A DNA stretch of 64,000 bases from Lytechinus pictus. Its lineage: Eukaryota. This document shows, in pieces, positions 1,016 to 47,779 of this stretch. Below the pieces are notes generated by a model, which was not told where the DNA came from, made no database searches, and saw only the letters and a program-made list of their open reading frames with translations. The stretch is taken from contig NC_087251.1 in assembly GCF_037042905.1 (NCBI RefSeq), positions 49,415,358-49,479,357 of the forward strand, read 5' to 3'. The position numbers and the translations under genes were made by a program. Every line of letters begins with the position of its first letter. Position 1 is the first letter of the stretch.

Positions 1016-1416
1016 CTGATTTATAGGGGAGAAGAGAAAGATATAAAGTTGTTTTTCTTGTAAAGTCATATATGACTTTAAATTGACAGGAACATGTTGT
1101 TTTTAGGTGCTAAGTCAGCTACATAGAACGATATCATTTAGCACATGAAAGTGTCACCGTTCATACATAAAGTCATTTGTAACTTATGTACAGCTCTATT
1201 AAAATACCCACCACAAAATCCCCTTGGCTGCTTGTTTTTAACAACTACAATTCTTTGATCCTTTCCCCAAGAAAGTGCTAACTCTAGTGGAGTAATTGGA
1301 AGTTGCAAACAAACGGAACCAATAAAGCCACACCCGTTAAAAAAAAAAAGTAAAAAATCTATGTTTTGAAGCTTCCAAGGACGATTGTTACTTTCACCAA
1401 CCCTCTATTTCTTTAC

Positions 1417-1847
1417 CTTGTATTGCTTTCATTCCACTGTAGTTCTCTCTCTGACCTTCCAGTTTCATTAAGTTCCTTAGCACCTCCTTTCCTCTTCGGT
1501 GCATTATAGTTCTTAGATTGAGCAAGTCTTGAAGTGGCACCCGTCTTTAAAGTTCTTGGAGTGAACAGCTTCCGCGACTCTGTAAACTTATCTGCTCGCT
1601 TGTCTAGAATGTCCGCTGATTCCTTTCTTGGTGTTCGGCTTTGGTAGTCCAGAGTCATTGAGCCTTGCATGTCGGCGTTCTTATTGTTCCTGTATTGGTT
1701 TGAATTGTAGTTGTGTGATTGGCTGGTGTGTGGCCTGTTCACGTCTGAGTATGCACTGCGGGGGCGGTACGGTTGAGGGGTCATAGAAGCGTTCCGAGGA
1801 CCTCGCGGATCAGAGATTCCATACTTGGCAAGGTCTTCATCCAAGTC
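1417..1847 (-). CDS. SPATA7: SPATA7-like exon 6
   Basis: Lies within ORF 1413-1859, with CAG acceptor and GTAAAG donor. SADILDKRADKFTESRKLFTPRTLKTGATSRLAQSKNYNAPKRK matches the conserved DLLD..F....FTPRTLKT..S.L.Q...Y....RK block of SPATA7 (recall). Confidence 0.88.
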
Positions 1848-3809: not shown

Positions 3810-4007
3810 TACACTTCATTGAAGGGAGTTTAATCTTCTGTACACTTCATTGAAGGGAGTTAAATCTTCTGTACACTTCATTGAAGGGAGTTTAATCCTC
3901 TGTACACTTCATTGAAGGGAGTTTAATCCTCTGTACACTTAATTGAGGGGAGTTTAATCCTCTGTACACTACACTGAAGGGAGTTTAATCTTCTATACAC
4001 TCATTGC
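3810..4007. repeat. 31-bp minisatellite, about 6 copies, plus one more unit at 5433-5459
   Basis: Unit TACACTTCATTGAAGGGAGTTTAATCTTCTG starts at 3810, 3841, 3872 and onward. Confidence 0.92.
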
Positions 4008-4009
4008 AG

Positions 4010-5430
4010 AACTACTACTAGCTGGTGGTGAATCAGCAGTAACTTTGATGCTCAAGCTCTGTGTGAAGATATGGCAGACAGGTGAAAGGCCTATAGACTG
4101 GTGTCGTGCTCGGTTTGTTTCTATACCTAAGAAAGGAGATCTACAACTTTGCGAAAACTACAGAACAATTTCCCTCATCTGTCATGCGAGCAAGATCATG
4201 CTTCAAGTACTTCTAAGTAGAATGACTCATCAACTGGTGACAGAAATGGATGAAGCACAAGCACCCGGGCACCAGAGACCACATCTTTAATCTTCAATTG
4301 CTTATTCAGAAATGTCACAAAATGAACCAGGATTTATTCATCTGTTTTGTGGACTACTCCAAAGCCTTTGATGATGCTAGATATAGCCATCTTTGGAATG
4401 TGATGCTGAAAATGGACTTCCCACATCATGTGATCAGGCTGATTAGATCTCTGTACGCGGACCAACAGTCAGCTGTTAAATTGGAATGTGGCACTACAGA
4501 CTGGTTCGATATCAAGAAAGGAGTTCGACAGGGATGTATACTCTCTCCTGCATTTTTTAACATTTACACAGAGAAAATAATGAGGGAAGTTATGGTGTCC
4601 AAGCAGAAGACTTTGACTTATTGCATGTAGGAGGAGTAGAGCTAGGAAATCTGCGATATGCAGATGAGGCAGCTATGATTTCCAAATCAAGACCTGGCCT
4701 GAGAAGTATTGTATCATCTCTGAATGAAAGAAGCAAATCATACGGTTTCAAAATGAATGCGTCAAAAACGAAAGTTATGTCTGTGGTTAAAGAAGAGGAT
4801 GGAAATGATGAAGGAGTTAGTATTGATAACTCAATACTGGAGGAAGTTGATCATTTCAAGTACCTTGGGGTGAGAATTCAGAAAGATGGTGACAATAGCA
4901 GGGAAATTAAAAACCCGACTAGCTATGGGTTTGAAGGCACTAAACAACATGAAGAAACTATGGCAATGACAGGACAAGCAGACGAAAGTTCTCAGAGCCT
5001 GCATCTTCCCCATTGCAACCTACGCCTGCGAAGCTTGGGTACTACGTAAGGCAGATGAGCTAAGAATCACTGCTTTTGAAAGCAAGTGTTATCGCAGGAT
5101 TTTGAGAGTCCCCTGGGTGGAACGACGGACAAATGAAGACATCAGGAATGAGCTCAATGTGCCTAGTGACTGGCTACTGCAATATGTGAGGAGACAAAAG
5201 CTGGGATATTTTGGTCATATCATGAGACATAATGGTCTGGAGAAGAGGGTCCTTGGGGCACACATTCCTGGTAAACGTAGTAGAGGAAGACCAAGATGTA
5301 AATGGGACAAAACAGCGAGGGAGGCATTTGGTACCATGGAGAAAGCAACTAGAATGGCTCAAAACAGATGGTTGTACCAAGCTGCCGTAAGGGAAGCTAC
5401 GCTCTGATTAGAGTATGCTGTGACGACGAC
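4010..5430 (+). mobile_element. 5'-truncated, frameshifted RTE-clade LINE (reverse transcriptase and C-terminus)
   Basis: ORF fragments 4045-5407 carry IPKKGD..C.NYRTISL..HASK, FVDYSKAFD, GVRQGCILSP, NLRYADE, FKYLG and YFGHIMR..GKRSRGRP. Ends in a short (GAC)3 tail. Confidence 0.93.
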
Positions 5431-6670: not shown

Positions 6671-7275
6671 CTAAAAAAAAAGGTCATTATAACATTAATA
6701 TTGCTATCAGGGCCCAGAAACACAAAGGTAGATGATCATGTGCTTAATTTTCATGATTGATTGTGCATTGTAGTCTATGCAAACTATTGTCAAAATATCT
6801 TCTGCGATCATTGCTAAGCTTTGTGTTACCGGCTCCAGGAAAGGAAACTTCAATGAAATCCAGAAATGACTGCATTGGCCTCCATGTTGATTCAGCACGC
6901 AGAGTGTAAATTCCATATTTACCCCAAACTTAAAAAAAATGGTTCTACTTTATATTCGAGTTTGGGTATTTAACACTTAATAAAGTAATACATATTAAGG
7001 GCTCTACTATATTGAGTTTGGGTATTTAGTTCCGTACTAAATAAAATAATAAAATTCAACAAATAGGCTATGAAAGGTGCATGGATATTATTTTGGCTTA
7101 AATCGGCTCCCTTTCTCGATTTTAACACGCCATTGACCCCAAAACATGCCACTTATTATTGAGTCGAGAATAAACTCTGCAAGTAATAAAGAGTTATTAC
7201 CTCCATTAAATTAACTCCTACTTTGTCCATTCAATCTTGTAGGCCATATAAGACAAACTACACGCGCACTCCGCC

Positions 7276-8521
7276 ATGGATGCCGTTTTTGCATCGCTTC
7301 CAGTCATTGATGGGAACATAGAAGGCGGGATAGCCACCGGTATAGATGAAAGTCTATCCAAGGACCTTCGAATCCCAGTCCTCAGAAGAGGCGAAGAAGC
7401 GCTAGACAGGATCAAGTCCAAGGCCGTAGCTATACGCTGGGCACATACAAAATTCAAGAAGAACAAAACCCTCCAGAAGTTAGCAGTATGCGCAGTTGTG
7501 ATAACCTACGATTTGGGGTTGCTAGTGGATGGAGACTCAGACATAACATACATCGGTCCAGACCATGAGCTCTGTGCTGAAGACAGTCACGATGATGATA
7601 TCAGGAAAATGACCAATTCTACAGGTTTCAGTCAAGCTGCAACTGTAGTACTGGCAACCAAACCATCCTATTGGTTAACAAACCATCACATAGGACAGGG
7701 GAGAATGGCAAGTTGTCCACGTAAAGTCGCCGAGGTCCTCTTTGAATACACAGATATAGAAGAACTGTCTTCAATTTTCCACACCATTGGTCACTGGGCT
7801 AGTACTCGCAAAGTCCTGGAGGCAGCAGGCATTGAGGCATCGCCAAGTCTAACCCTATCTTTGATACTAGACACACTTTGACCTTATCAGAGGACGCCAA
7901 GTTGCGTTTCGGAGGATTTCCAGTCAGAACGCATAAAGTAGCCAACGCCTACTAGGGAGCGGAATGCCTAGTCGCCTCAATGTACTACGCGATAACCCTT
8001 GACGCAATTACCATACGCGACATATTTCGCCAATACAACAAGATTAGGCAAAACAGGTCAGCCTACCACGTAGGAGCCAAGTTTCTGACGGGAAAGCCTA
8101 GGGCGGAAGCTGAGGAACCAGTAGCTAAATCTATGCTGTGCCGAGTAGGCACTTTCCTACGAATCGTTATGCCCCGATCTACTTTGACTGCCTCTCCGCA
8201 CTTCGAAGTGTCAAGAGTTCAAAGCTATTCGGACTATGACGGCGACTATGAGTCTCGCATCACTGCGTCAAGATCTCGCCAAGCAACAATGTCAAGTAAA
8301 CCCATGGGGAGGATTATAGAAGTCTTCACCTTCATGTCATCGCGAATCGCCCAAGACATCGCGCCTTCGGCGTATCCGTCGCATTTAAGTTGCAGGGAGA
8401 GTCTTCCTCTGACCATGAGCCTGAACCAGTTGCATCTGAGGAGTCATATGTAGAAGAGGAGACGGCCACAACTTCTAAGTCTAAAAGGAAGACCAAGCAG
8501 CAGTCTGGCACGGCTAAGTGA
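7276..8521 (+). pseudogene. Endogenous viral element: disrupted nucleoprotein-like gene of a negative-strand RNA virus (Qinviridae-like)
   Basis: Intronless and higher in GC than the flanks. ORFs 7276-7881 and 7980-8453 join via a frameshift near 7837 and a TAG at 7953. A further frameshift near 8360 leads to an acidic/basic tail ending TGA 8519-8521. Motifs: ATKPSYWLTNHHIGQG, HTIGHWAST, TLSEDAKLRF, YHVGAKFLTG, GTFL..STLTASPH. Confidence 0.8.
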
Positions 8522-10590: not shown

Positions 10591-10681
10591 CGTCTTTCGG
10601 ATGGTGACGTTAAAGGTCGGTCCCAGACATAAATAATCATATCTGATTGATACACGTCTGACAAAACTCAAATACACACAT
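10591..10681 (+). mobile_element. 5'-truncated copy of the SINE at 46259 (core and tail only)
   Basis: Near-identical to 46336-46426 (CGTCTTTCGGATGGTGACGTTAAAGGTCGGTCCCAGAC...ACAAAACTCAAATACACACAT). Confidence 0.85.
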
Positions 10682-11924: not shown

Positions 11925-12805
11925 ATTTATTTATTTATTTCTGATATTTTGACAGGGTAGCCCATTCACCAATAAGTAGTGGTCTTCCATGGGGCCCTGA
12001 ATAACAATAAACATATTTACAAAATGCATAACGTATGTACAGAATGTTACAGCATTAAGATTCACATTAGGATTTGAATGTAAAACGAAACATTAACAAA
12101 CTTAGCAGCAAACGAAACGCAGACGGGCACTCGATCGTTTGACGTATAATAAAATATCAATAAATCAAATTAATTAAGAAGGACATCTTGAAAATACTGA
12201 TAACATACACCAAATCATCAAGGTCATGCTAACACAAAATAAGCACGTTATTTATAAATTACAAGTTCTTTTAAACATTCTCTTAAATGAAATGACAGAA
12301 GGAGCTGTTCTAATTGAATTATCAAGCTTATTCCATTCAAATATTGAAGATACGATTGGACTACACTTATAACAATCAGTGCGAAACTTGGGCACGCGTA
12401 AATATCCACTGTCTCTCTGTCTGGTATGATGTTCATGTACATCATTTGGATTGGTTAAGTTTACCTGAAGGTAAGAAGGTGCTAAATTATGAACACATTT
12501 AAATATCATCAAAACGCGACTGAGCTCAAATCGTTTGTCTAGTGTCATCCATTTAAGACTTGTGAACAAATCAGCCGACGGTGTGTCGTATGTCTTGTTC
12601 AATATAATTCTTGCAGCCCTCTTCTGAATTTTTGCAGCTTAATTGTATGGGATTGAAATCTATTCGACCATACAGCAGAACAGTAATCAAATCTTGGCAA
12701 CACTAAACTGTTATAAAGCAACTTTAAGGACTGCGCAGGCAAATAACTTTTCGCTCTCTTTATTATGCCAATGCTTTTCTGAGTAAGTTTACATACATTT
12801 TCCTA
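11925..12805 (-). mobile_element. CR1/L2-group LINE 3' fragment
   Basis: Minus strand reads LYNSLVLPRFDYCSAVWS...RAARIIL..LFTSLKW..H.H.TRQ..EWNKL..SFKR (includes ORF 12252-12602). Followed by a 3' UTR and (TAAA)n tail at 11925-11940. Confidence 0.85.
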
Positions 12806-15884: not shown

Positions 15885-16590
15885 CATTCACTTTAATACT
15901 TTTGTTATTGCTCTGCATTTCTTTCTCCTTTATCCCTAGCCCTTTAAGCGTTCCAAATCCCTAACTGTTATTTCTGTGAAATTGTATTAAAAATACCGAT
16001 ATAGTAGGATGGGGGGGGGGGGGGGTCGGATGTCCGGACACTTTATATTTTATTTATAAGTAAATAAGTTGTGAATAAAATGAATAGCTAGAAAGTAATA
16101 ACAAATATTCGACATCACCTCTGTTGCTTATTGAATTTCAAGATAAAAAGAAACAACTGAAACTACTTTCCTCCAGAATACATATAATGTTTTTAATTAT
16201 AGCTGGCGATATACAACATTTGGTATTAAAACTACAAAAGGCTTATTTAAAAAAAAAATATGTTGTACATACGAGCTGAATACATCACAGTTTAAACATT
16301 AAGAAATAATTAAGTTTTTAATTCAAATAAATTCAAAATAATCTACCTTCTCCTCTTTATCATCATTATCACCGGCATTATCATCATCATCCGCGTCATC
16401 ATCTTCCTGGTTGTTCTCTATGCAACTCAACGAATGCAAAATTGCATAGCGCCACCTTTTGTTTGAAACATTATATCGTTGGTTTTAACTTTCTTCAAAT
16501 ACTAGTAGCTGTTTTTCGGTAATACTAACAAATAACTGAACTTCTTTATATCAATTATATTCAGCATGTACGTATAATTGATTTGTTTAA

Positions 16591-17491
16591 CCCTAAAAGG
16601 ACTGGGGGCCATGATGCCCCCTCAACGTTTCGCCCGATATTTTCGAAACTCAAAAAGATAGCACGAGCTGCACTAGCGTACCTAAGGGGGACAGACTGCC
16701 CCCCCTGACGAGTCACAACTCATGCAAAGGACGTATCCCTGCCCCCCTGAAGAGCCACAAGTGTCCCCCTCCTTTGAACTTGAAGACCTTTTTTTTTTTT
16801 TTTCTTGTCAATTTTTTTTCTGGTGCGAAATTTGCCCCCCCCCCCTTTGGAAAATCCTAGGTACGCCACTGACTGCAAAGACTTCTTTCCTTGAAGTCTC
16901 GCGCAACTTTTGAGACCAAATTCGCGACATACGGGTATAGCATCGCCACGTCACGTGACTTTTTACGCGACAATGTCATGCCGAACATGGCTCATTTGTA
17001 TACTGTGTGTACAAAGTCTATGGGAGATGAAATTCATAAAAGGGTTTATTTTATATTCTAAGTGGTCTGCTTAATTAATTTAGAGTTTTATTAAGTTATG
17101 AAAGTGTCTATGATAATTTCCATTGAAAAAAACCCCAATAAAAAACAAAAGATGAAAAAAAAGATAAATACAAAAGAAATTCTAAAGACAAAGAAATACA
17201 TAAGGAAAAATTGGCTTTCACAAATTTTCTTTGTGGAAACCTATAAATTAGATTGCAAAGATGACATCTGGAAAAAAAAGAAGTAAATATGCAGTGAAAC
17301 TGGGTGTTAAATATGCAAATCATGTTTTTTACGAATAAATTTGCATAACTTCATACTAAATAAAAAATAATCATTTTCAGATTTTTTTTATACTGGCTTG
17401 TAGTTTATGTAGTATAGAATGTGCGTGTCGAATCGCGCGAACGGCAGCCGAGATCAGAAGTCCCATCTCATATAGCCCAGTCCTTTTAGGG
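16591..17491. mobile_element. piggyBac-type non-autonomous element with a nested small TIR element (16671-16871)
   Basis: TTAA-CCCTAAAAGGACTGGG ... CCCAGTCCTTTTAGGG-TTAA. A related copy lies at ~46241-47987. Confidence 0.8.
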
Positions 17492-18256
17492 TTAAGATTG
17501 TCTCTATCATGTCTAAATTTATTCAATAACAGAGATACGATCTTACGTATTCAATGTAGTATAGCGCCAGCTATAGTTCAAATTATAATGTGGTCTAAAG
17601 TAAAATAGTTTTTTTAGTCTACTTGTTATGCAGTGGACAGGTTATTGTTTGAAATTAAACAATTTGTTTTAAAATTTCCATGTTCATTGATAATACAACG
17701 TCCTTTTATCTGCATTTCATTGGGCAGGGTCTTCGTCTTCTTCATTATTGAACTACCCTTATCTATTCACCAGTTGTTGCCGTGGCAGTATCAATATGAA
17801 TTCCATTGTAGTTTTGGAATGAAGGGATGATCAGAATTAAGTATCATGATGTTTAATATGATTTACCGGAATTAAATAATTTGCATTTACGTGTTATTGG
17901 AGTAGATCATTCCTAGTTGATGAGTTTCGAGGATATTTAGCGATTTTTTTTTATCATGGCTAAAATAGATATAAAGTATATTCCTCATTTGTCTCCTCCT
18001 CTTCTTCTCATCTCATCTCCACAGAGTTCTCATCATCATTGTTGCTAATGTGATCGTTGCCAAATGCTGACCGATGTGGACAAACTTCACGAACGAAAGT
18101 CGCATAGCGCCATCTCTTGTTGGAAACATTATATCGCTGTATTTAAACAATAAAAAACAAAAGAAATAGTGAGTAATGGACATCATCGACTGACTCACCT
18201 TGTGAATATGACTGTTTTGTGAAAAATAAGCGAAACTTTAAAATGTCATAACTTTC

Positions 18257-18758
18257 CGCATACATTCGTAATTCCGAAGCTTCGTTATTCCGAAGGTTTG
18301 GATATTCCGAAGGTTCGTTATTCCGAAGGTTCGTTATTCCGAAGGTTCGTATTTCCGAAGGTTCGTAATTCCGAAGGTTCGTTAGTCCGAAAACGAAAAG
18401 ATGTTTGTAATTCCGAAGGTTCGTTAGTTCGAAAACGAAGTGAGGTTCGTAATTCCGAAGGTTCGTTAGTCCGAAAACGAAATGATGTTCGTAATTCCGA
18501 AGGTTCGTTAGTTCGAAAACGAAGTGAGGTTCGTAATTCCGAAGGTTCGTTAATCCGAAAAAGAAACATCAAACCTTATTTTGTTTTCGGATTATCGAAC
18601 CTTCGGAATAACGCCACAAATGTTTGGATTAACGAACCCTTTTACGTTTTCGGATTAACGAACATCGAGGTATAGGCAATTTACGTGTTTCGGAATTACG
18701 AACCTTCGGAATAAAGAACCATCGGAATTACGAACCTTCAGAATTACGAAGTGTAACC
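18257..18758. mobile_element. Foldback/MULE-like MITE built of TTCCGAAGGTTCGT subrepeats
   Basis: Inverted arms of tandem subrepeats. 9-bp TSD ATAACTTTC at 18248 and 18759. Inserted in a TTAA-type MITE fragment. Confidence 0.85.
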
Positions 18759-19249
18759 ATAACTTTCTTATTTTACATCCGATTTTTCAGCACTATGCCA
18801 GTTTGATTTTTCCCTATTTATTAAAGTCAGCATTTTCCTGGGGTGGACTTGACCCTTAACTTTGTTGAAATCGCCCTGATCTGAATGTTTTATAATAAAT
18901 ATAGTATGCGTGAATTACCTTTATGTTTTTGATTATTTCTATCAACTTATCTATGTTTTATTCTAGGAACATTAAAATGTAGTATAGCGCCATCTATACT
19001 TTATGGTCCGTATTCTGAAGGTGTCACGCGCGTAAAACATTCCCCATAGACTTGTGTGTTAAAATGGCACTTAAGAAAAATTCATACTAAAATAAATGTG
19101 AAATTAGAGGGTCGAATGTTTACTACCTTTGGATAGGATATATATCTGACATTCCATATCTGACCAGAGAAGGGTATCGTAGCCAGCTCATTTTAAAAAT
19201 AAATCGCCATTTATGAAGATAACTATGATGGGATCAAATTCATCACCTG

Positions 19250-35800: not shown

Positions 35801-36090
35801 GTGATGTCTTGTGGCGAGACTACAAACACATCGCTTATTTTTGTGTGTGCTATAATGGCAAAGACTACTATGCAGCTTCGTTTGAGGTTATAGGCTAACA
35901 TGTATAGGATGTCATGAGCTGCAGAAACAGCCCCACCCCCATAGAATAGTGCTAGGGGGGGTTGTAACTGTAATTATTTTTTTTTCACTGAGCATGTTAA
36001 TTATTTCTCTGAAAATCAAGAGGGGGGGGGGGGGATTTTCAAATTATTTTTTTAATGAAAATTGACTGTGACACATGAGACGAGAAAGTT

Positions 36091-36987
36091 TTAAAAATTA
36101 GATTGAAGGGCCCTGCCTCAAACCCATATGAAGGACAATTTAAAAAATTAGATTTAAGGGCCCTGCCTCAAGCCCATATGAAGGATAATTAAAAAAATTA
36201 GATTAAAGGGCCCTGCCTCAAACCCATATGAAGGATAATTTGAAAAATGAGATTGAAGGGCCCTACCTCAAACCCATATAAAGGATAATTAAAAAAAATT
36301 GATTGAAGGGCCCTACCTCAAACCCATATGAAGGATAATTAAAAAAATTAAATTGAAGGGCCCTGCCTCAAACCCATAGGAAGGATAATTAAAAAAATTA
36401 GATTCAAGGGCCCTGCCTCAAACCCATATGAAGGATAATTTAAAAATTTTGATCAAAGGGCCCTGCCTCAAACCCATAGGATAATTTAAAAAATTAGATT
36501 GAAGGGCCCTGCCTCAAACCCACATGAAGGATGATTTTAAAAATTAGATTAAAGGGTCCTGCCTGAAACCCATATGAAGGATAATTTAAAAAATAAGATT
36601 GAAGGGCCCTGCCTCAAACCCATATGAAGGATAATTTAAAAAATAAGATTGAAGGGCCTTGCCTCAAACCCATATGAAGGATAATTTAAAAAATTAGATT
36701 GAAGGGCCCTGCCTCAAACCCATATGAAGGATAATTTAAAAAATAAGATTGAAGGGCCCTGCCTCAAACCCATATGAAGGATAATTTAAAAAATAAGATT
36801 GAAGGGCCCTGCCTCAAACCCATATGAAGGATAATTTAAAAAATAAGATTGAAGGGCCCTGCCTCAAACCCATATGAAGGATAATTTAAAAAATTAGATT
36901 AAAGGGCCCTGCCTCAAACCCATATGAATGATAATTTTAAAAAATAGATTGAAGGGCCCTGCCTCAAACCCATAGGAAGGATAATTA
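36091..36987. repeat. 50-bp tandem array, about 18 copies
   Basis: Unit TAAAAAATTAGATTGAAGGGCCCTGCCTCAAACCCATATGAAGGATAATT. Confidence 0.95.
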
Positions 36988-38504
36988 ATAATTAATTTCA
37001 CAAAACAGTTATGCACATCCTGCCTGGTATGCCAATGCGGAGACTATGACGTCATCCACTCACTATTTTGTATTTTATTATATGAAATATTCTAATTTTC
37101 TCTTCATTGTCAAGGGATACAATGATTAATTCCTCCCTGAATATGTGAAATTAGCATTGTTTAATACTAAATGGTTCAGTCAAGTTGGTCCTTATTGTCA
37201 AATCTATAAAAAAATGAAATATTGTATAATTCAAACAATAAAAAACAAAAGAAATAGTGAGTGATGGACATCATCGACTGGCTTACCTACTTGTGCATAT
37301 CACTGTTTCGTGAAAAATAAGCGAAACTTTAAAATGACATAGCTTTCTTATTTTACGTTCGATTTTGATGAAATTGTCAGCACTATGCTAGTTTGATTTT
37401 TCTCTATTCATTCAAGTCAGCATTTTCCTGGGGTGGACTTGACCTGTAATATAGTTCATTACACTGTAGCTTTAACCTATTTCCTCTCAAGCAAATGATT
37501 CCAGCTGTTATTTGAAAATGATATGTTGTGCTCACAGATGGACAGTATTGTGTAATATAATATACAGGGATGTAATCAAGGCCTGTACTTTACAAAATGT
37601 GGTCTTAGGGTCGACCTCGAGTAGCCTTATGTACATCCCTCATACCAGGGTCTTGTAACACAAAAGATATTTAAAGGACAAATTTGATTACAGTCCATGT
37701 ACAAAAAAATGCAACCAATTACATGTATAAGTATCAGTCTTATATCATGTATCACCCCTCTAAAGTGATATTTCAGCAACAATCTCTTTATCTCTTCTCT
37801 CTTTCTATTTTCTTATTGTGCTTAGAGACATTTATTGTGATAAGCACTTTTTAAATATAGTTAATTATCATGTTTATAAATTGTTTAACGATACATTTAA
37901 AATGCATATTTTGGTTTGCATCGATTGCCTGTTCAATACCAGAGCGTATCCCTAAAAGGACCGAAATCCGACAAATATCCCTTAGTATAGGCTCCTGTAC
38001 AAAACTTGCCATTATATGAGACCGTATTCAACAGTCTAGTGTGCATGCGTGAAATACACTAGTACAAAGCGTACAACAATGAAAGCAACGCGATAAGCAA
38101 CATAGAGCACAATGACACTCAATGATGTCATAATGAACTACTTGTAATAATTATAATAATATTAGCGGGGCCCGCTGGTAGAACAGTTTTTGGAACTGAA
38201 GTGACTACCCTGGGTAGATACGTTGTTATTATCATTATTATGTAAGTTGCTTGTCAATTACCAAATTACGAAGTGATGATGGTATAATGTGGCAATTGAT
38301 ATGACTTGTTCAATCAAATTGCTCCCCCTTTTTTCTTTTTTTTCTTTTTTTGGGGGGGAGGTGGGATAGATAATAAATATTTGCCCAAACTCTTGAAATA
38401 TTTCTGGTATTCCATTCTGAGCCATCCAATATAATTATTATTATATAATTCAAAAGCATCGATGCTTTCATCTCTCTTTGTTTTTTTTTTTCATTTTCAT
38501 ACAG

Positions 38505-38606: not shown

Positions 38607-39733
38607 CTAATGAGCCTCGGTATGAAATGAATCAACCAATGAACTGCCTTGATGATGCATTTTATCATATCGATCAACCAATCAGATAGCATGGTGGTGA
38701 ATATTCATGATTTGGGCAACCAGTGATGATGAATATTTGTGATGTGGGCAAACCAGTCAATTAACTGAGGCTCATGTAACAAATGAGCTTCAATGAGATA
38801 TGAATCAACTAAAAATGAACTGCCTTCTTGATTCATAAATCAGATAGCATAGAGATGAATATTCATGACTTTGGTTACCAAGTAATGTGTAATGTAATGA
38901 ATATTCATCTGCTGATCAATCAGCTAGCTGGCTTTGTAGATATGATGGCATGATCACCCATCTAATGAATAGGCAGTCGGCTATTATGAAGAAGTGTAAA
39001 GATGAATATTCATGTGTAAATTATTTTGATGATGATTATTCAAAAATTTGTTGATGAATATTCATCTGCTTCAAACGATAATTGATCAACAGTCATTAGT
39101 AGGTAGTATAAATGTGTACCAATCAATTGACAGAAAACTGAAATATTCATGCAGCAATCATCAAAGATATAATCTAATTGGCTCATGGAGGGACGTTTGT
39201 CACCCCCCCCCAAAAAAAAAAAAAAAAAAAAATTGCTGCCATATATTAAAGGAATGTATCCTTGTTATATTTTCTTATTAGAGTTTTATTAACCTTGCAT
39301 TTAATGTTTTCAATCATCATCTATCAGCATTTTGAAATTGGTCTTTGTCTTCTAACCATAAAAGTATGTAAAAGCATTGTAGTTTATCTGTTAAAATCTT
39401 TTATTTGTATCTTGTGTGTATAGTAATTTTCGTCCATATAATGGGTTGTAATTCTTGCACCCCATGACCCTCTATCATGACCTTTGACCTAATCTATTTA
39501 CTCTTTTGCTGCTAAAGTAAACTAATTAATCTTCAGAAGATTGTTCTAGGTTACAAGTACTAATTAAATTATCCATTTTATATCAAAGTCAAAGTGTTAC
39601 TTTTAACAAAGAGATATTTATTAACGTAGAAAATGAAAGGTATTTTAATTAAAGATTTATGTACATGTAGATATTATTGACCAAGGCTTTATATTAGCAG
39701 TGGCCCTATGGCACAGGGTAACCCCAAAATTAA

Positions 39734-40365
39734 AGGTAAAGTCCACCCCAGAAACTTATTTTTTAATGTTGATTTGAATCAAGAGAGAAAAATTAAACAA
39801 GCAATTTCATCAAAAATAAGAAAGTTATGACATTTTACAGTTTCGCTTATTTTTCTCAAAACAGTTACATGCACAACTCAGTGATATGCAAATGAAAGAG
39901 TTGATGATGTCCATCACTCACTTTTTCTTTTGTTTTTTATTGTTCGAATTATACAATTTTTCCATTTTACAGAATTGACAACAATGTAAAACTGAACCAC
40001 ATAATGTTAAACAATGTTAATTCCACATGTTCAGGGAGGAATAAAACTCGATTTCACTTGACAAGGGGGAGAAAATCAGAATATTTAATATTTCATATAA
40101 TAGAAAGAAATAGTGAGTCGATGATGTCATCAGTCTCCTCATTTGCATACCGACCAGAAATAGTGAGTCGATGATGTCATCACTAGTCTCCTCATTTGCA
40201 TACCGACCAGGATGTGCATATAACTGTTGTGTGAAATTAAGCGAAATTTCAAAATGTCATAACTTTCTTATTTTACATCCGATTTTGATGAAATTTTCAG
40301 TGTTAAGCTTGTTGTATTTTTCTCTTTTTATTCATATTAACTTTTTGTTGGGGTGGACTTGTTCT
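39734..40365. mobile_element. TTAA-target (Kolobok-like) MITE
   Basis: TTAA-AGGTAAAGTCCACCCC...GGGGTGGACTTGTTCT-TTAA. Same family as 46654-47256, with fragments near 18140-18860 and 37000-37450. Confidence 0.82.
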
Positions 40366-43218
40366 TTAAATGTCAACTCCTTACTCCATACCTATGACAA
40401 ATTTATAGAATATCTCTTTCATGTACAAGTATTTGTTTGTTTAATTTCAAGTAAATTTATGGGTATATATTTATATTATATTGACTGGGCTTCAGGGGAA
40501 CATCAAATATGTCGATTCTTGATGATTCTTGAGGAGTAAAGCATTTGCATTTTGTCATGTGTATGGTAAGGGGTAACAAGTCTGCTCAGTGCAGCTCCTT
40601 GTCTGTGCATACGTGTACATGCGCCATTCTAATAAAAGGAAATCAAGATATGCCACAACCACAAACTGCCATACATAGATATTCATTAACAAATTCAACT
40701 CAAATTTCAGGCATTTCATGTGACAGTCTCAAAATCCAGCCTTTTTCCTCAAAATCACTGAATGGTGTGTAAAAGGGTGTGCAGACATGGGGCACCATTT
40801 TTGTTCAATCTGAAAATGACCAGCCTAGGGTCTTTTAAAAAAATCATATTTTTCACTCAAATTATTTTCTGATATTTTTGGCACACTTATTCTTAAGAAT
40901 ATATAAAGAACATTATCAATTGAAAACTTTCGTGAAATAAAAAGAAATTCACGTGTAGTATGCCTAGCAATTGAGTCTCAGAACTCTTGTTGGAATGCTC
41001 CTCAGGGAGTGGAGAAGGTTTATACATTGTATGGAGGCATGCCAGGATCCGATGACTGGGGTAATAATATCTCTGTAAAGCCCTTAGAGATGTCATTTGA
41101 TGTGTTAAGCGCTATATAAATGTGGAACATTATTATTATTATTATTATCATTATTATTATTAATCTAAATTATTAGGTGCGCAGACATGGGACCCCCTTC
41201 ATACAAAATGTTTTTTTTTTTTTGGCACAGTATGCCCTCAATACACGTAGCATGCTCTCATGTCCCATTGGGCTGAAAGACAATGTTATCACACATACCA
41301 TGTATTAATAATGAGACCATTACAAATTTCTTATGGATTTACAATATTTAATGGGCTTTCTAAATCTGAATATTATACATAGAAGATATTTGATTTGGAC
41401 TTACATGTAATTAAGTATTCAATTAATGAAGTAGAGAGACATTTTTTTGTGGGGGGGGGGGGGTGTTTGGGAGCAGGGACACATTCTACTACTGATAACA
41501 ATTTAACTTTTTTTTTCAGAAACAAATTTAGAATTGACAGGGTTGCACTCTATGCCTTTTCTAAAACGATGTATTACTTCCCAGTTTTAATATGTCATCA
41601 ATTTTATAGTATACTGGTAGTGGATGTTTAAACCAGCATGTATATAAGAGTGAATTAGAATTTAAAGAATACATTTTTTTTGCTGACTCTAGTCTTTGCA
41701 TCAAAATTTTGCTGACAATAAATGCTGCAAATCACTACTTGTTTTCATTTGACATTCATTTTCAGGCAGCTATAATGATTCATTCTAATATGGAAAATGG
41801 GGGATAAAATTGAAGGTCATTAACTGCTCAAATAGATAATGCTATAAGTACTGAGCATTGAAATGCATTTTCAAAAATATCTGAATTTATATGCAAAATT
41901 GTGTTTATATTTGTTTGTTGTGTTTTTATTAATATGAGGGAAAAATACTTCCTTTATAAGGAAATATCACAAATTTCTAATGCTCATAAACAATGTTGTG
42001 TAAATAGTATACAGTTTTTCTCACTATATTGTTTAAACATATAATTCTTGTATATTTTATTTTGGCCCTATTTCATAAAAATTACTAGCATGGTAAATAA
42101 ATTGCCATCCACTGGTAACTTGCATGGTAACAGGGCTCATCAGCCAATCAAAATCAAGGATTCCATGTTAGTTACTATAGTGCATGGCAGTCTTCATGAA
42201 ACATGTCCCAGCGCTAGTCTGCATGCACAGACCCTTGGTTTTGAGTCTGAAGTAGTGAGACTAGACTTTTGCTGGGTTTAACTTTAATTGGACACAGACA
42301 TAGAGTTGACTTTCACTCTAGACATACTAGACATGTCAAATATGAGAACATATCAGTATACATATGTAAATTTCAATGCAAGATATTTTATTATAATTTT
42401 GAAGGAGTGTTTTTATTTCATTACAAAATATTTCCACTTCATCTTTTACGTTTCAATGTTATTTGACATTCAAAGTTAGATGTTTAATGTATAAGCCCAT
42501 GTGAGGGTCGCGTTTAATTCAAATGTTTACTGATTAAATGCTGCTTGTATAAAATATGCAAAAGAAAAAAGAAAAAGAAGAGATAGCGTAGAATCAGAAA
42601 CAGGACTTCAAAATCTCTCCTTCAAGAATTATCAAGAAATTATCTTTGTTGAGATATGGCAAGTTCAAAAGTCACAATTGTGATTTAAGTATCATGTACC
42701 TATACTTTGTTTGCTTTGAAATTTTCTTGAACTTTGTTCCATGATCTTCAAGTAATTATACAATTGGTCTGTATCATCCCCTTTATAATTATCATCTTAT
42801 CTTTTGAAGGGGAAGTTCACCCAAAGCAAAAAAAAAATCCATCGAAGAATGAGAGAGCTATATAATTTGTAAGATTTATTTTTTGATGTCACAGTCGAGC
42901 AGTTTCTGCATATGTGATATGTCCTGCAATTTGAAATCCATTGTATATATGCACATTTCCTGGAATGGTATGAAATTATCTCCTTATTCAAACACCAGAC
43001 ACATTATTTCAACCATATATTTCTATGAAAATGAATTATAGTTTCGGTAATTGAATTAATCAGCTTGTATTATGTGACATCATGAAACTGAGACTTTGTA
43101 AATTTCATGTAACTGTGTTATTCTTTGATGTATTCAGTCCTTCACCTATATCTGTTTGTTTTAAATTTTAAATCCTTTTATCATGATTAACTATTGAAGT
43201 TAAGAGAAATACATGCAA

Positions 43219-43872: not shown

Positions 43873-46258
43873 CAACAAATTGCCCGTATGAGTTACAAGT
43901 GTGCAGCATAATTTTGGATAGATTTGTTTTGACTGAATGTACTCGAGTCCCTGTATATATGAATCTATTGAGAGGAAAGATGATGGCAATAACAATATCA
44001 GTCATGACAATGCTGTTTTGTTGCTTAAGATTAGTGAGTAAAGACTAATAGGGGCATTGCTATAAACTTGCAAGTGATTGCAATTTAATTTTAAGGTGAA
44101 AAATCAATCATAAATCTGGTATATTCATTTCAGATTTGCACTTGACTGTTGGTCTTCTTCTGGTATCGAGCAGTAAAAATAAATCTGCTCTTGATGAAAT
44201 AGATATATCGATTGCAAATTAATTTGCATAAGAAATTTGCGATTGATTATAAATATTTTCTTGCAAATCATTTTTGTTTGTTTTATATCCGTTCTAGAAG
44301 TAGCTATACCAGTACATTGTGTATTAAGGGTATTCTTTATGACACTCTTTAAATAGAAAATTTATTACAGGCCTCTCAGCCCCATTATAATACACTGTAA
44401 TATCTGGGATGTGACAACATTTAGTGTCCATAGAGGGTCACACCCTAAAGTGTTACAATTACACCTTACGAGTTTGGACATACACCAAATGTGTTAAAGT
44501 AATGACCAAAGGTGTTGTGATAACACGCATATGTTATGAAATATGAACTAACACTAACTTTACTGGAGTAAAATTCCAGATGTTTTCCTCTTTGTACACC
44601 GGATTAACACCACAGTTCTTGCTGTGTAGATATTTGACACCCCCCCCCCCCCCCGAGACTGTATAAAGTAGTAATATGAGCCCTCTTGATGAGTAGCAAA
44701 AACAGGTTATACTATAGTCACAAATACATTTACAAATCATATGAATGATTTCATACCATTTATTGTTTGTATAAATATCATTGGTACAGCGACCGTAAAG
44801 GTATCTGTGACCATAGCATTAGGTGTTCACATTGAGAAACAGATTTTGCTATGAGTAATCTTGCTTCTTTTATGATAAATATTCAAAGAGAGTGTTGTTT
44901 TGAAGTCATCTTTCTACTTGAAATTTACATTAGTTAATTCTCATCGCAGATCTGTTGAGTATTCAAAGAGTTTTGAAGAACTTTTGGAAACATGGATGAG
45001 CATTCTTAGTCAATTGGAGTTTTGGAGGTACATGTATTTTTAAAGAACATTATTGTGTAAAGTCCTTTAAAATCAGAATAATTCTGCATTATTTCACTTA
45101 GGTACTATAAGGAAATGAATACCTATTTATTTTTTCATTGGTTTATTTCTGAATGTGTATTGAAAGCAAAACTTGGACTTATTGGAAGTATATACTGTAT
45201 ATCAAAATCATGAACATAGAAAAGTAATTTGGATTATCAGGAAAGTAAAATATCCCCTTGGTTTTATTCTGCTGAAGCTCGAAGTAACAAAGCTTTTTTT
45301 TTTACACATTTCTCTTAATGTGTGACCTTTTAGTTGAGATTTTTGAAAATATTTCAATTATTCTATGGAGAAGATGGGGTATTTTATAACATTCTATGAA
45401 TTACATTGTATGTATGTATTATAACTTTATGCATTGAGTCTTCCTGGATGTAATGAATGAAACAATGGTTTATACGATATGATTTATCATTATGAGCATT
45501 TTATATTGACGTAATACAATGATATTTACAATGTATATATACTATTTCTTATTTGTTTGTATGCTTGATAACAAGATTCAAATTTCTTTTATCTTCATCT
45601 TCAATTTTGATTTTATCATTATTTTATTGCTGCTAAATCTCCTCGATTTATATGAAAAAATGTAACCAAGATATATTAAATCTTCTTGAAGTATGGCTAC
45701 TAAACTCATGGCATGTGTGGTATGACAGTTTATTCTGAGTCTTGAAAATGATTTTGAACGTGAATAGGTAGCTGAATGTGCAAAAAAATAATGTTTTGAT
45801 AGTCAATTTCGTGTTTTGTGTATGGTTACTGAAAAAAAGTGTGGGGGGGGGGCTGATGTCCCCTCTGGGTCTGCGGCCCTGATATATAGAGGGTCAACCC
45901 CCCCCTCTTAGAAAAAAAAGGAAAAACAGTGGAAAGAACAAAAATGGAGCACTCATCAAATATCTATATATAAGCTGTTATAAAATTGATAGAGGTTACC
46001 TCTCTGATATAAATGATGCACCTGTTTGGCTATTAGTTGTTTTGACTTTATAAGTGATCGAGGGCAAAGTGCTGTAAGCAATTGAGGAAAGTCACTGGAA
46101 CATTAGGTGTAGTCTTTGTTTTAGTATTTGTTTATTATCTAGTTCAGTGAATTACTACCTTAAAGTATTTTAAGCACTGCACATGTTTGTTTCAGAATGC
46201 AGTGTTGGGGAACTAACCAAAATGAACTATATACAAGTATTGGGGGGCATGATGGCCT

Positions 46259-46427
46259 GGGCGTTGTGGCGTGCGCCTGTAATCCAAGCTATGTGGGGAA
46301 GTTACAAATTGATGCAGAGGTTCGAGCCCTGGTCACGTCTTTCGGATGGTGACGTTAAAGGTCGGTCCCAGACGTAAATAATCATATATGATTGAAACAC
46401 GACTGACAAAACTCAAATACACACATA
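46259..46427 (+). mobile_element. SINE with 7SL-like 5' head, B-box and Deu/Nin-like core
   Basis: GGGCGTTGTGGCGTGCGCCTGTAATCCAAGCTA head, GGTTCGAGCCC box, GTCTTTCGGATG core and CA-rich tail. 11-bp TSD CATGATGGCCT at 46248 and 46428. Confidence 0.8.
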
Positions 46428-46653
46428 CATGATGGCCTCCTCGACGCTACGCGCGATATTTCCGAAACGCAAAAAGATACATGGATAGCGCCGACTTTTT
46501 TCTGGTATAGCATCGCGACGCCACGCGACTTTTTACGAGACAATGTCATGCCGAAAATGGCTCATTTTTATACTTTGTGTACAAAGTCTACGGGAGATGA
46601 AATTCATAAAAAGATTATTATTTTTCGTTCTAATTGGTCTGCTCAATAATTAA

Positions 46654-47256
46654 AGGACAAGTCCACCCCAACAAAAAGTTGATTTGAATAAAAAGAGAAA
46701 AATCCAACGAGCATAACACTGAAAATTTCATCAAAATCGGATGTAAAATAAGAAAGTTATGACATTTTAAAGTTTTGCTTCATTTCACAAAACAGTTATA
46801 TGCACATCTCGGTCGGTATGCAAATGAGGGAACTGATGACATCACTCACTCACTATTTCTTTTGTATTTTATTATATGAAATATGAAATATTTTGATTTT
46901 CTCGTCATTGTCATATGAAATGAAGTTTCATTCCTCCCTGAACACGTGGAATTCCATTATTTTAACATTTTGTGCTTCAGGCAAGGAGGTCCTAATCATC
47001 AAATTTGTAAAAATTGAAATATTGTATAATTCAAACAATAAAAAACAAAAGAAATAGTGAGTGAGTGACATCATCGACTCTCTCATTTGGATGCAACTGG
47101 CTCGTTCATATAACTATTTTGTTAAAAATAAGCGAAACTTTGAAATGTCATAACTTTCTTATTTTACATCCGATTTTGATGAAATTTTCAGCATTATGCT
47201 TGTCTGATTTTTCTCTATTTATTTAAATCAACATTTTTCTGAGGTGGACTTGACCT
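46654..47256. mobile_element. TTAA-target (Kolobok-like) MITE, full length, nested in a piggyBac-like element
   Basis: TTAA-AGGACAAGTCCACC...GGTGGACTTGACCT-TTAA with long imperfect TIRs. Confidence 0.87.
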
Positions 47257-47779
47257 TTAAGGAATTAATGAAAAACAAAAGATTAAAAAAAGAAATACAT
47301 GAGAAATTCTAAAAACAAAGAAATATATAAGGAAAAAAATTGGCTTTCGCAATTTTTCCATGTGGAAACCTGTAAATTAGATTACAAAGATGACATCTGG
47401 AAAAAAAAGAAGAAAATTTGAAATGAAATTGGGTACTAAATTTGCAAATAATGTTTTTCACGAATAATTTTGCATATTTTATTCATAATGAATAAAAAAT
47501 GATTATTTCTTTTTTTTATACTGGCTTGAAGTTTATGTGGTAGAGAATGTGCGTGCCAAATTTCGGCGCGATCGCGCGAACAGCGGCCAAGATCACGGGG
47601 GGGGGGGGGGCATGATGGCCCCCAGTCCTCAAAAGTTTATTGATAAAAAATCCTGACATTTAAGGATCATCATAAAAAACAAAGAAACATAAGAAAAAAA
47701 ATAATACAACATAAGCATAACATAGTAACAACGAGGTATTCAAAACAAAACCAAACCAAAAACCAAAAACCAAACAAAG

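Follow-up and report, generated by a model that had tools for sequence, protein, structure and literature searches.

Can a sea urchin carry a short interspersed element (SINE) whose front end descends from 7SL RNA, and would such a head serve the element as it serves Alu? This question is raised by a short insert in the genome of Lytechinus pictus, found in a stretch of 64,000 nucleotides that we call the window and to which all positions refer. A preliminary description of the window, made from the letters alone, had proposed an Alu-like, 7SL-headed SINE in an apparent echinoderm genome. The genome is indeed that of an echinoderm: the exon at 1416-1847 (reverse strand) matches spermatogenesis-associated protein 7 (SPATA7) at 100% identity in L. 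pictus and at 84% in Strongylocentrotus purpuratus. Exons of this SPATA7 homolog occupy 757-1874 on the reverse strand. Papers are cited here by their PMC numbers, and what is attributed to them refers to the parts of each paper that were available.

The insertion and its parts

The insert consists of 169 bases between the copies of a target-site duplication, or 169-180 bases when counted as an element, and lies inside a piggyBac-like repeat. The features needed for the argument are the following.

10591..10681, forward strand: second SINE copy, headless (body and tail only), 95.6% identical over 91 bases
16587..17495, forward strand: sister copy of the host repeat, TTAA-flanked, with 16-bp perfect terminal inverted repeats, piggyBac-like
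46243..47630 (approximate limits), forward strand: host repeat carrying the SINE; its ends are worn, and both the SINE and a second repeat (about 46650-47260) interrupt it
46248..46258, forward strand: left copy of the target-site duplication, exact 11-bp direct repeat
46257..46301, forward strand: 7SL (SRP RNA) head, the 5' part of the Alu domain with two hairpins, matching positions 2-43 of the 299 of Rfam RF00017
46302..46318, forward strand: spacer from the head to the B box, 9 bases shorter than in the relative L003
46319..46329, forward strand: pol III B box, in a register shared with the relatives L001-L003
46336..46368, forward strand: Deu-like conserved hairpin at the beginning of the body, likened to the first 33 Deu bases
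46369..46405, forward strand: 3' stem-loop, from a fold prediction
46406..46427, forward strand: short A/CA-rich tail without poly(A)
46428..46438, forward strand: right copy of the target-site duplication, exact 11-bp direct repeat

The perfect direct repeat that had been reported around an insert of about 170 bp is present, and its sequence occurs exactly twice in the whole window, at 46248 and 46428. The control was a sampling of positions for 11-bp direct repeats at about the same spacing: outside tandem arrays, 3 of 2,684 positions have one, the SINE site included, and with the arrays counted in, 44 of 3,165. The final two bases of the left copy double as the first bases of the SRP match described below, an overlap that possibly reflects 5' microhomology.

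The host repeat had been called piggyBac-like, and this is supported because TTAA flanks its sister copy on either side and the terminal inverted repeats of that copy are perfect over 16 bp. The same sister copy had been presented as the empty site, near 16605-16660. It does support an insertion, but as a paralogous copy of the host repeat, with the site at 16610, rather than as the same locus without the insert. The target is present there only once and imperfectly, with one gap and one mismatch, and the sister copy aligns with the right flank of the SINE at 84.6% identity over 52 columns. The insertion is genuine, and the paralogous empty site is good support for it. A second repeat family, which starts at TTAA, is nested in the host repeat of the SINE (46650-47260) and has further copies in the window at about 18140-18859, 36992-37450 and 39728-40369.

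Under the SINEBase definition (PMC3531059), the element qualifies as a short (<1 kb), interspersed, non-tandem repeat: the second copy lies 35 kb away, and the family evidence below adds seven unrelated flanks. The duplication and simple-repeat tail expected of a SINE are also found, as the 11-bp repeat and the CA-rich tail. The second copy is truncated and headless, as had been noted, but its description as typical of target-primed reverse transcription (TPRT) is not established, because no duplication of at least 5 bases was found around it.

The B box, core and CA-rich tail that had been claimed are all found at the positions listed above. The core had been likened to the Deu domain, and this holds over 46336-46368, where 26 of 33 columns are identical, by eye, to the AmnSINE1 row in Fig. 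S4 of PMC7245038; from 46338 onward, this hairpin is invariant in all five of five copies. However, it is one short hairpin: a DeuSINE carries a Deu domain of about 131-142 bases, of which the element has only the first 33 columns, the rest being missing. Nin, which had been named together with Deu, is a variant or part of Deu (PMC5786205). The 3' stem-loop that is predicted to follow is likely to be the recognition site of a LINE; a two-sided change is seen at none of its 21 predicted pairs, so that covariation lends the stem-loop no support. The first T run downstream on the forward strand is at 46496.

The 7SL head

The preliminary description had derived the head from 7SL RNA rather than from a tRNA, and had proposed a search with the Rfam SRP models. 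In this search, the Metazoa_SRP model matches 46257-46301 with 24.2 bits, at an E value of 0.00039 when 901 bases are searched and of 0.028 when the whole window is searched. The match extends from model position 2, at the insertion border, to model position 43. Its score is far below the Rfam gathering score of 70, as would be expected for a fragment. No tRNA model is among the five Rfam matches to the SINE head up to an E value of 10, and the derivation from 7SL is supported.

Within the head, the A box is expected by position (7SL 6-15; PMC7245038). The bases named in PMC12265939 for SRP9/14 binding are the U-turn triad and the loop-loop pairing. Mapped onto the SINE through the Rfam alignment, and thus at the sequence level only, the triad falls at 46259, 46278 and 46279, and the loop bases 46268-46270 are complementary to 46288-46290; all are intact and agree with the Rfam consensus. 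These features of an Alu domain are accordingly present in the letters of the head. Folded in isolation, the head is predicted to form two hairpins, the first of six pairs and the second small, with loops able to pair in a duplex of -5.7 kcal/mol. The whole element is predicted to fold no better than shuffled sequences (z 0.46), and the Alu hairpins are missing from its minimum-energy structure. A search for a 3' Alu strand that would pair back from downstream found none (491 of 500 shuffles are as good or better).

How Alu-like is the element, then? It has the 5' part of the Alu domain, but it is less Alu-like than the known 7SL SINEs, having no 3' strand. In particular, Alu, B1, Urop and Ebu1-1 keep both 7SL ends around a central deletion, whereas the present match ends at position 43 of 299. 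The definition of SINE1 (PMC7245038) asks for a 5' part from 7SL, which the element has when judged against the Rfam family model rather than the host gene. SINEBase (PMC3531059) asks for at least 60% identity to tRNA, 5S or 7SL RNA over at least 60 bases, and the match is 45 bases long; the element falls short of this rule in length, not in likeness. The SINE thus agrees with the SINE1 definition of the head and departs from both the whole-Alu-domain feature and the 60-base rule.

The family and its differently headed relatives

Gene callers at times translate such SINEs in antisense, and public proteins can therefore be used to look for further copies. The first protein query was the antisense frame of the headless copy with its own flank, which includes neither head nor linker, and it returned five proteins from ENA contigs. 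The second, a profile that covered body and linker and likewise left out the head, returned 19; together, the two queries gave 20 distinct proteins. Eight of these 20 body-bearing peptides run on into a nine-residue stretch that corresponds to the antisense translation of 46260-46286. They agree with it at 7-9 of 9 positions, a level that 0 of 300 shuffles reach for any of them, and the other 12 peptides agree at 2-3 of 9. Half of the headed peptides (P0008, P0009, P0010 and P0012) came from the query without head or linker. The other four (P0020, P0023, P0026 and P0027) were found with a profile containing a second linker, and for this reason 8 of 20 is not an estimate of the headed share.

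The flanks of the headed peptides are unrelated to each other, except those of P0010 and P0012, which leaves seven independent sites. This comparison covered seven of the eight headed peptides; in P0008 the flank on that side is almost absent, and the far side, compared by eye, is unlike that of the SINE locus. In P0008, the head match reaches 46257 and is followed by another flank, and the B-box and linker residues are those of the SINE copy. In the other seven, the linker is of a second, longer type and the tail differs slightly; judged by these sequences, they are a second subfamily. The head peptide is conserved between the two linker types, but the linker itself is not. Note that the contigs bearing these peptides are public ENA contigs and may not be from Lytechinus.

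Because head and body recur together with seven unrelated flanks and two linker types, the head is a family trait, as SINE1 membership demands, and not a single chimera. The proposal of a 7SL-chimeric SINE family could have failed by other copies lacking the head; instead, the same head is found in the eight body-bearing peptides. We conclude that the insertion, the 7SL-like head and the family are all real.

The body also occurs behind other heads. An exact 24-base body pattern, used in one metagenome scan, gave three loci on marine metagenome contigs (L001, L002 and L003), whose bodies are identical to the SINE copy at 67-75 of 79 bases. They have in common with it the body, the 3' stem-loop, the start of the tail and the register of the B box, since a B-box-like motif stands at the same ungapped distance from the body. 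Their heads, however, are different: Rfam finds no SRP match in L001-L003, and the SINE head does not align with any of the three. The heads of L002 and L003 are homologous to each other (0 of 2,000 shuffles) and look tRNA-like; this term rests on box motifs recognized by eye, because ARAGORN and Rfam call no tRNA in L001-L003. Part of the spacer, 46303-46312, equals the head region of L003 in 9 of 10 bases (28 of 5,000 shuffles reach the score), and neither L001 nor L002 gives a match like that of L003.

Several minor observations concern these relatives. No duplication of at least 6 bases was found at the ends of L002 or L003. In L003, a 9-base duplication at 321-329 lies in the loop of the predicted 3' stem-loop and leaves the stem unbroken. 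Among the differently headed copies from unrelated public contigs, the body is 85-96% identical, which is high for a SINE body and indicates either close hosts or strong constraint. Searched with exact body patterns, viral contigs and prokaryote genomes each gave 0 matches. In a word search of sequencing runs, part of 46100-46650 is found in 20 of 24 rows, none with half of the words (best share 0.36), and these are matches of words only.

Origin of the element, rival readings and known systems

The reading that we favour, with moderate confidence, is that the 5' domain of 7SL RNA was grafted onto a tRNA-type SINE, replacing its front half, and that the predicted binding of SRP9/14 lets the element reach the reverse transcriptase of a LINE at the ribosome, as in Alu. 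In this scheme, a template switch or a recombination would have created a junction at about 46302 between 7SL bases of about 2-45 and a tRNA-headed parent, and the parent would, on the simplest reading, have supplied everything from the spacer to the tail. The B box in particular was likely inherited from this parent, as its position in the sequence suggests: in Alu, B1, Urop and Ebu1-1 it comes from the 7SL part, but here it lies outside the SRP match and in register with L001-L003. This origin is judged by the Rfam model, not by bases 47-86 of the host 7SL. RNA polymerase III would transcribe the element from a hybrid promoter consisting of the 7SL A box and the parental B box. The head would then fold into its two-hairpin, loop-loop structure, bind SRP9/14 and dock on ribosomes, where a LINE enzyme, probably of the CR1/L2 group, would recognize the 3' stem-loop and insert a copy by TPRT, leaving the 11-bp duplication. 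Experiments reported in PMC11760393 make 7SL bases 1-46 necessary and sufficient for SRP9/14 association, and give the 46-nt 5' Alu domain about 86% of Alu retrotransposition in HeLa cells. As for the LINE partner, the sea urchin SINEs in the table of PMC3747384 have CR1 or L2 elements as partners, which offers no more than a lead. The tail of the SINE matches neither of the two LINE ends present in the window (151 of 300 and 54 of 300 shuffles are as good).

The main rival accepts a real 7SL-derived family but takes the head as nothing but a replacement A-box promoter, with no SRP9/14 role, comparable to the 5S heads on Deu SINEs. The absence of the 3' Alu strand would fit this, and so would the structured 3' end in place of poly(A), through which a stringent LINE could find the SINE without ribosome docking; moreover, a takeover of the tRNA promoter by 5S is described in Deu SINEs (PMC4758252). 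Against it stand the retained piece, which extends about 30 bases past the A box and stops where the minimal SRP9/14-binding unit stops, and the head peptide, which is conserved across two linker types when the linker is not. We consider the promoter-only explanation possible but unlikely.

It is very unlikely that the head owes its likeness to SRP RNA to chance, being in fact a diverged 5' half of a tRNA or random GC-rich sequence. The shortness and modest score of the match (45 bases, whole-window E 0.028) and the tRNA-like heads of the relatives leave some room for it. Against this, no tRNA model matches, the alignment begins at model position 2 and at the element border and includes the SRP-specific U-turn and loop bases, and the head does not align with those of L001-L003. 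A one-off chimera, in which the enzyme switched from SINE RNA to 7SL RNA during a single insertion, is highly improbable and already largely refuted by the recurrence of head and body with seven unrelated flanks and by the B-box and linker residues that P0008 shares with the SINE copy, even though the window has a single headed copy beside a headless one and 12 of the 20 peptides have no head. Finally, contamination by human Alu or misassembly has a negligible probability: the head is Alu-like through descent from the same RNA domain, but it is enclosed by a target duplication in a sea urchin repeat, and the same non-Alu linker and body are joined to it on independent public contigs.

Returning to the favoured graft of a 7SL head onto a tRNA-type SINE, several known systems resemble it in part. 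The hagfish element SINE1-1_EBu (Ebu1-1; PMC7245038) likewise has a 7SL head on older tRNA-type SINE parts, no poly(A), a microsatellite-like tail and target duplications, and a non-L1 partner that is known for it and inferred for the sea urchin SINE. It differs in having 96 bases of the 7SL 5' end with their own A and B boxes, in keeping the 7SL 3' end, and with it the whole Alu domain, and in its RTE tail. The sea urchin SINE has about 45 7SL bases, no 3' strand, a B box in a tRNA-like register and a Deu-like hairpin. Alu, B1 and Tu of Euarchontoglires and Urop of the shrew mole (PMC13023118) share with it the 5' Alu-domain hairpins and the U-turn and loop-pairing bases. In contrast to it, they have a central 7SL deletion that keeps both ends, and L1 mobilizes them by way of a poly(A) tail; the tail of the sea urchin SINE contains no poly(A), so that it also departs from the poly(A) and L1 partnership of Alu, B1 and Urop. 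The same paper also mentions a Tu unit derived from both 7SL and tRNA.

Closest in extent is the engineered minimal Alu SA46 (PMC11760393), with 7SL bases 1-46 against model positions 2-43; SA46 is, however, a laboratory construct with a CMV promoter and L1, whereas the sea urchin SINE is natural and has a SINE body. The DeuSINEs, which include the sea urchin SINE2-3_SP and 5S-headed forms (PMC4824008, PMC4758252, PMC3747384), have a Deu domain whose start resembles the first 33 body bases, and they provide known cases of head replacement on a tRNA-type SINE. The present SINE does not have the remaining ~100 Deu bases, and its new head is 7SL, not 5S. The comparison with the SINE2-x_SP families is one of published descriptions.

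In the accessible parts of PMC7245038, PMC10886601 and PMC13023118, 7SL SINEs are listed only from supraprimates, shrew moles and hagfish, all with both 7SL ends. For sea urchins, the available parts of PMC3531059, PMC4758252, PMC4824008, PMC5786205 and PMC3747384 name only tRNA-type SINEs, and PMC8615465 does not mention 7SL or Alu. Within the papers searched, which include few subscription ones, no prior description was found, also when the body motif was sought in full text; the suggestion that the family is possibly undescribed therefore stands for these papers and not for the repeat databases Repbase, Dfam and SINEBase. In the consulted supplements of PMC7245038, PMC4824008 (without file 1) and PMC5786205, the body motif leads to Deu-type relatives and not to the SINE body. 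We regard as evenly poised the larger claim that this is an uncatalogued invertebrate lineage of 7SL SINEs, with at least two subfamilies, independent of Alu, Urop and the hagfish element, that keeps only the 46-base 5' Alu domain.

If this larger claim is true, the family would be a natural counterpart of the laboratory minimal Alu, and would show that ribosome docking through SRP9/14 works without the 3' Alu strand and without an L1 that reads poly(A), and that it can be attached to a tRNA-type SINE. The available text of PMC13023118 (2026) treats the birth of SINEs from 7SL as exceptional, lists only supraprimates, the shrew mole and hagfish, and ties the success of 7SL SINEs to a shared central deletion keeping both RNA ends. 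The sea urchin family would be the first beyond vertebrates in the papers searched and would break this both-ends rule, keeping only the piece that the HeLa experiments (PMC11760393) call minimal. Because relatives with the same body and other heads exist, any advantage of the 7SL head can be tested head against head. Embryos of L. pictus are easy to inject.

The window contains several other features. A frameshifted reverse-transcriptase remnant at 3958-5407 (forward strand; Pfam RVT_1, E 4.8e-15 and 6.9e-08) is RTE-like by eye, and its 3' end has no match to the SINE tail. A frame at 12252-12638 (reverse strand) resembles a LINE C terminus, is CR1/L2-like by eye without a Pfam match and is followed by a TAAA-repeat tail; it, too, has no match to the SINE tail. 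Two stop-free frames at 7252-7881 and 7956-8453 (forward strand) encode 209 and 165 aa; a by-eye impression that they are a remnant of an RNA-virus nucleoprotein is unsupported, there being no real Pfam match. A tandem array at 36089-36995 consists of a 50-base unit whose copies are about 90-93% alike.
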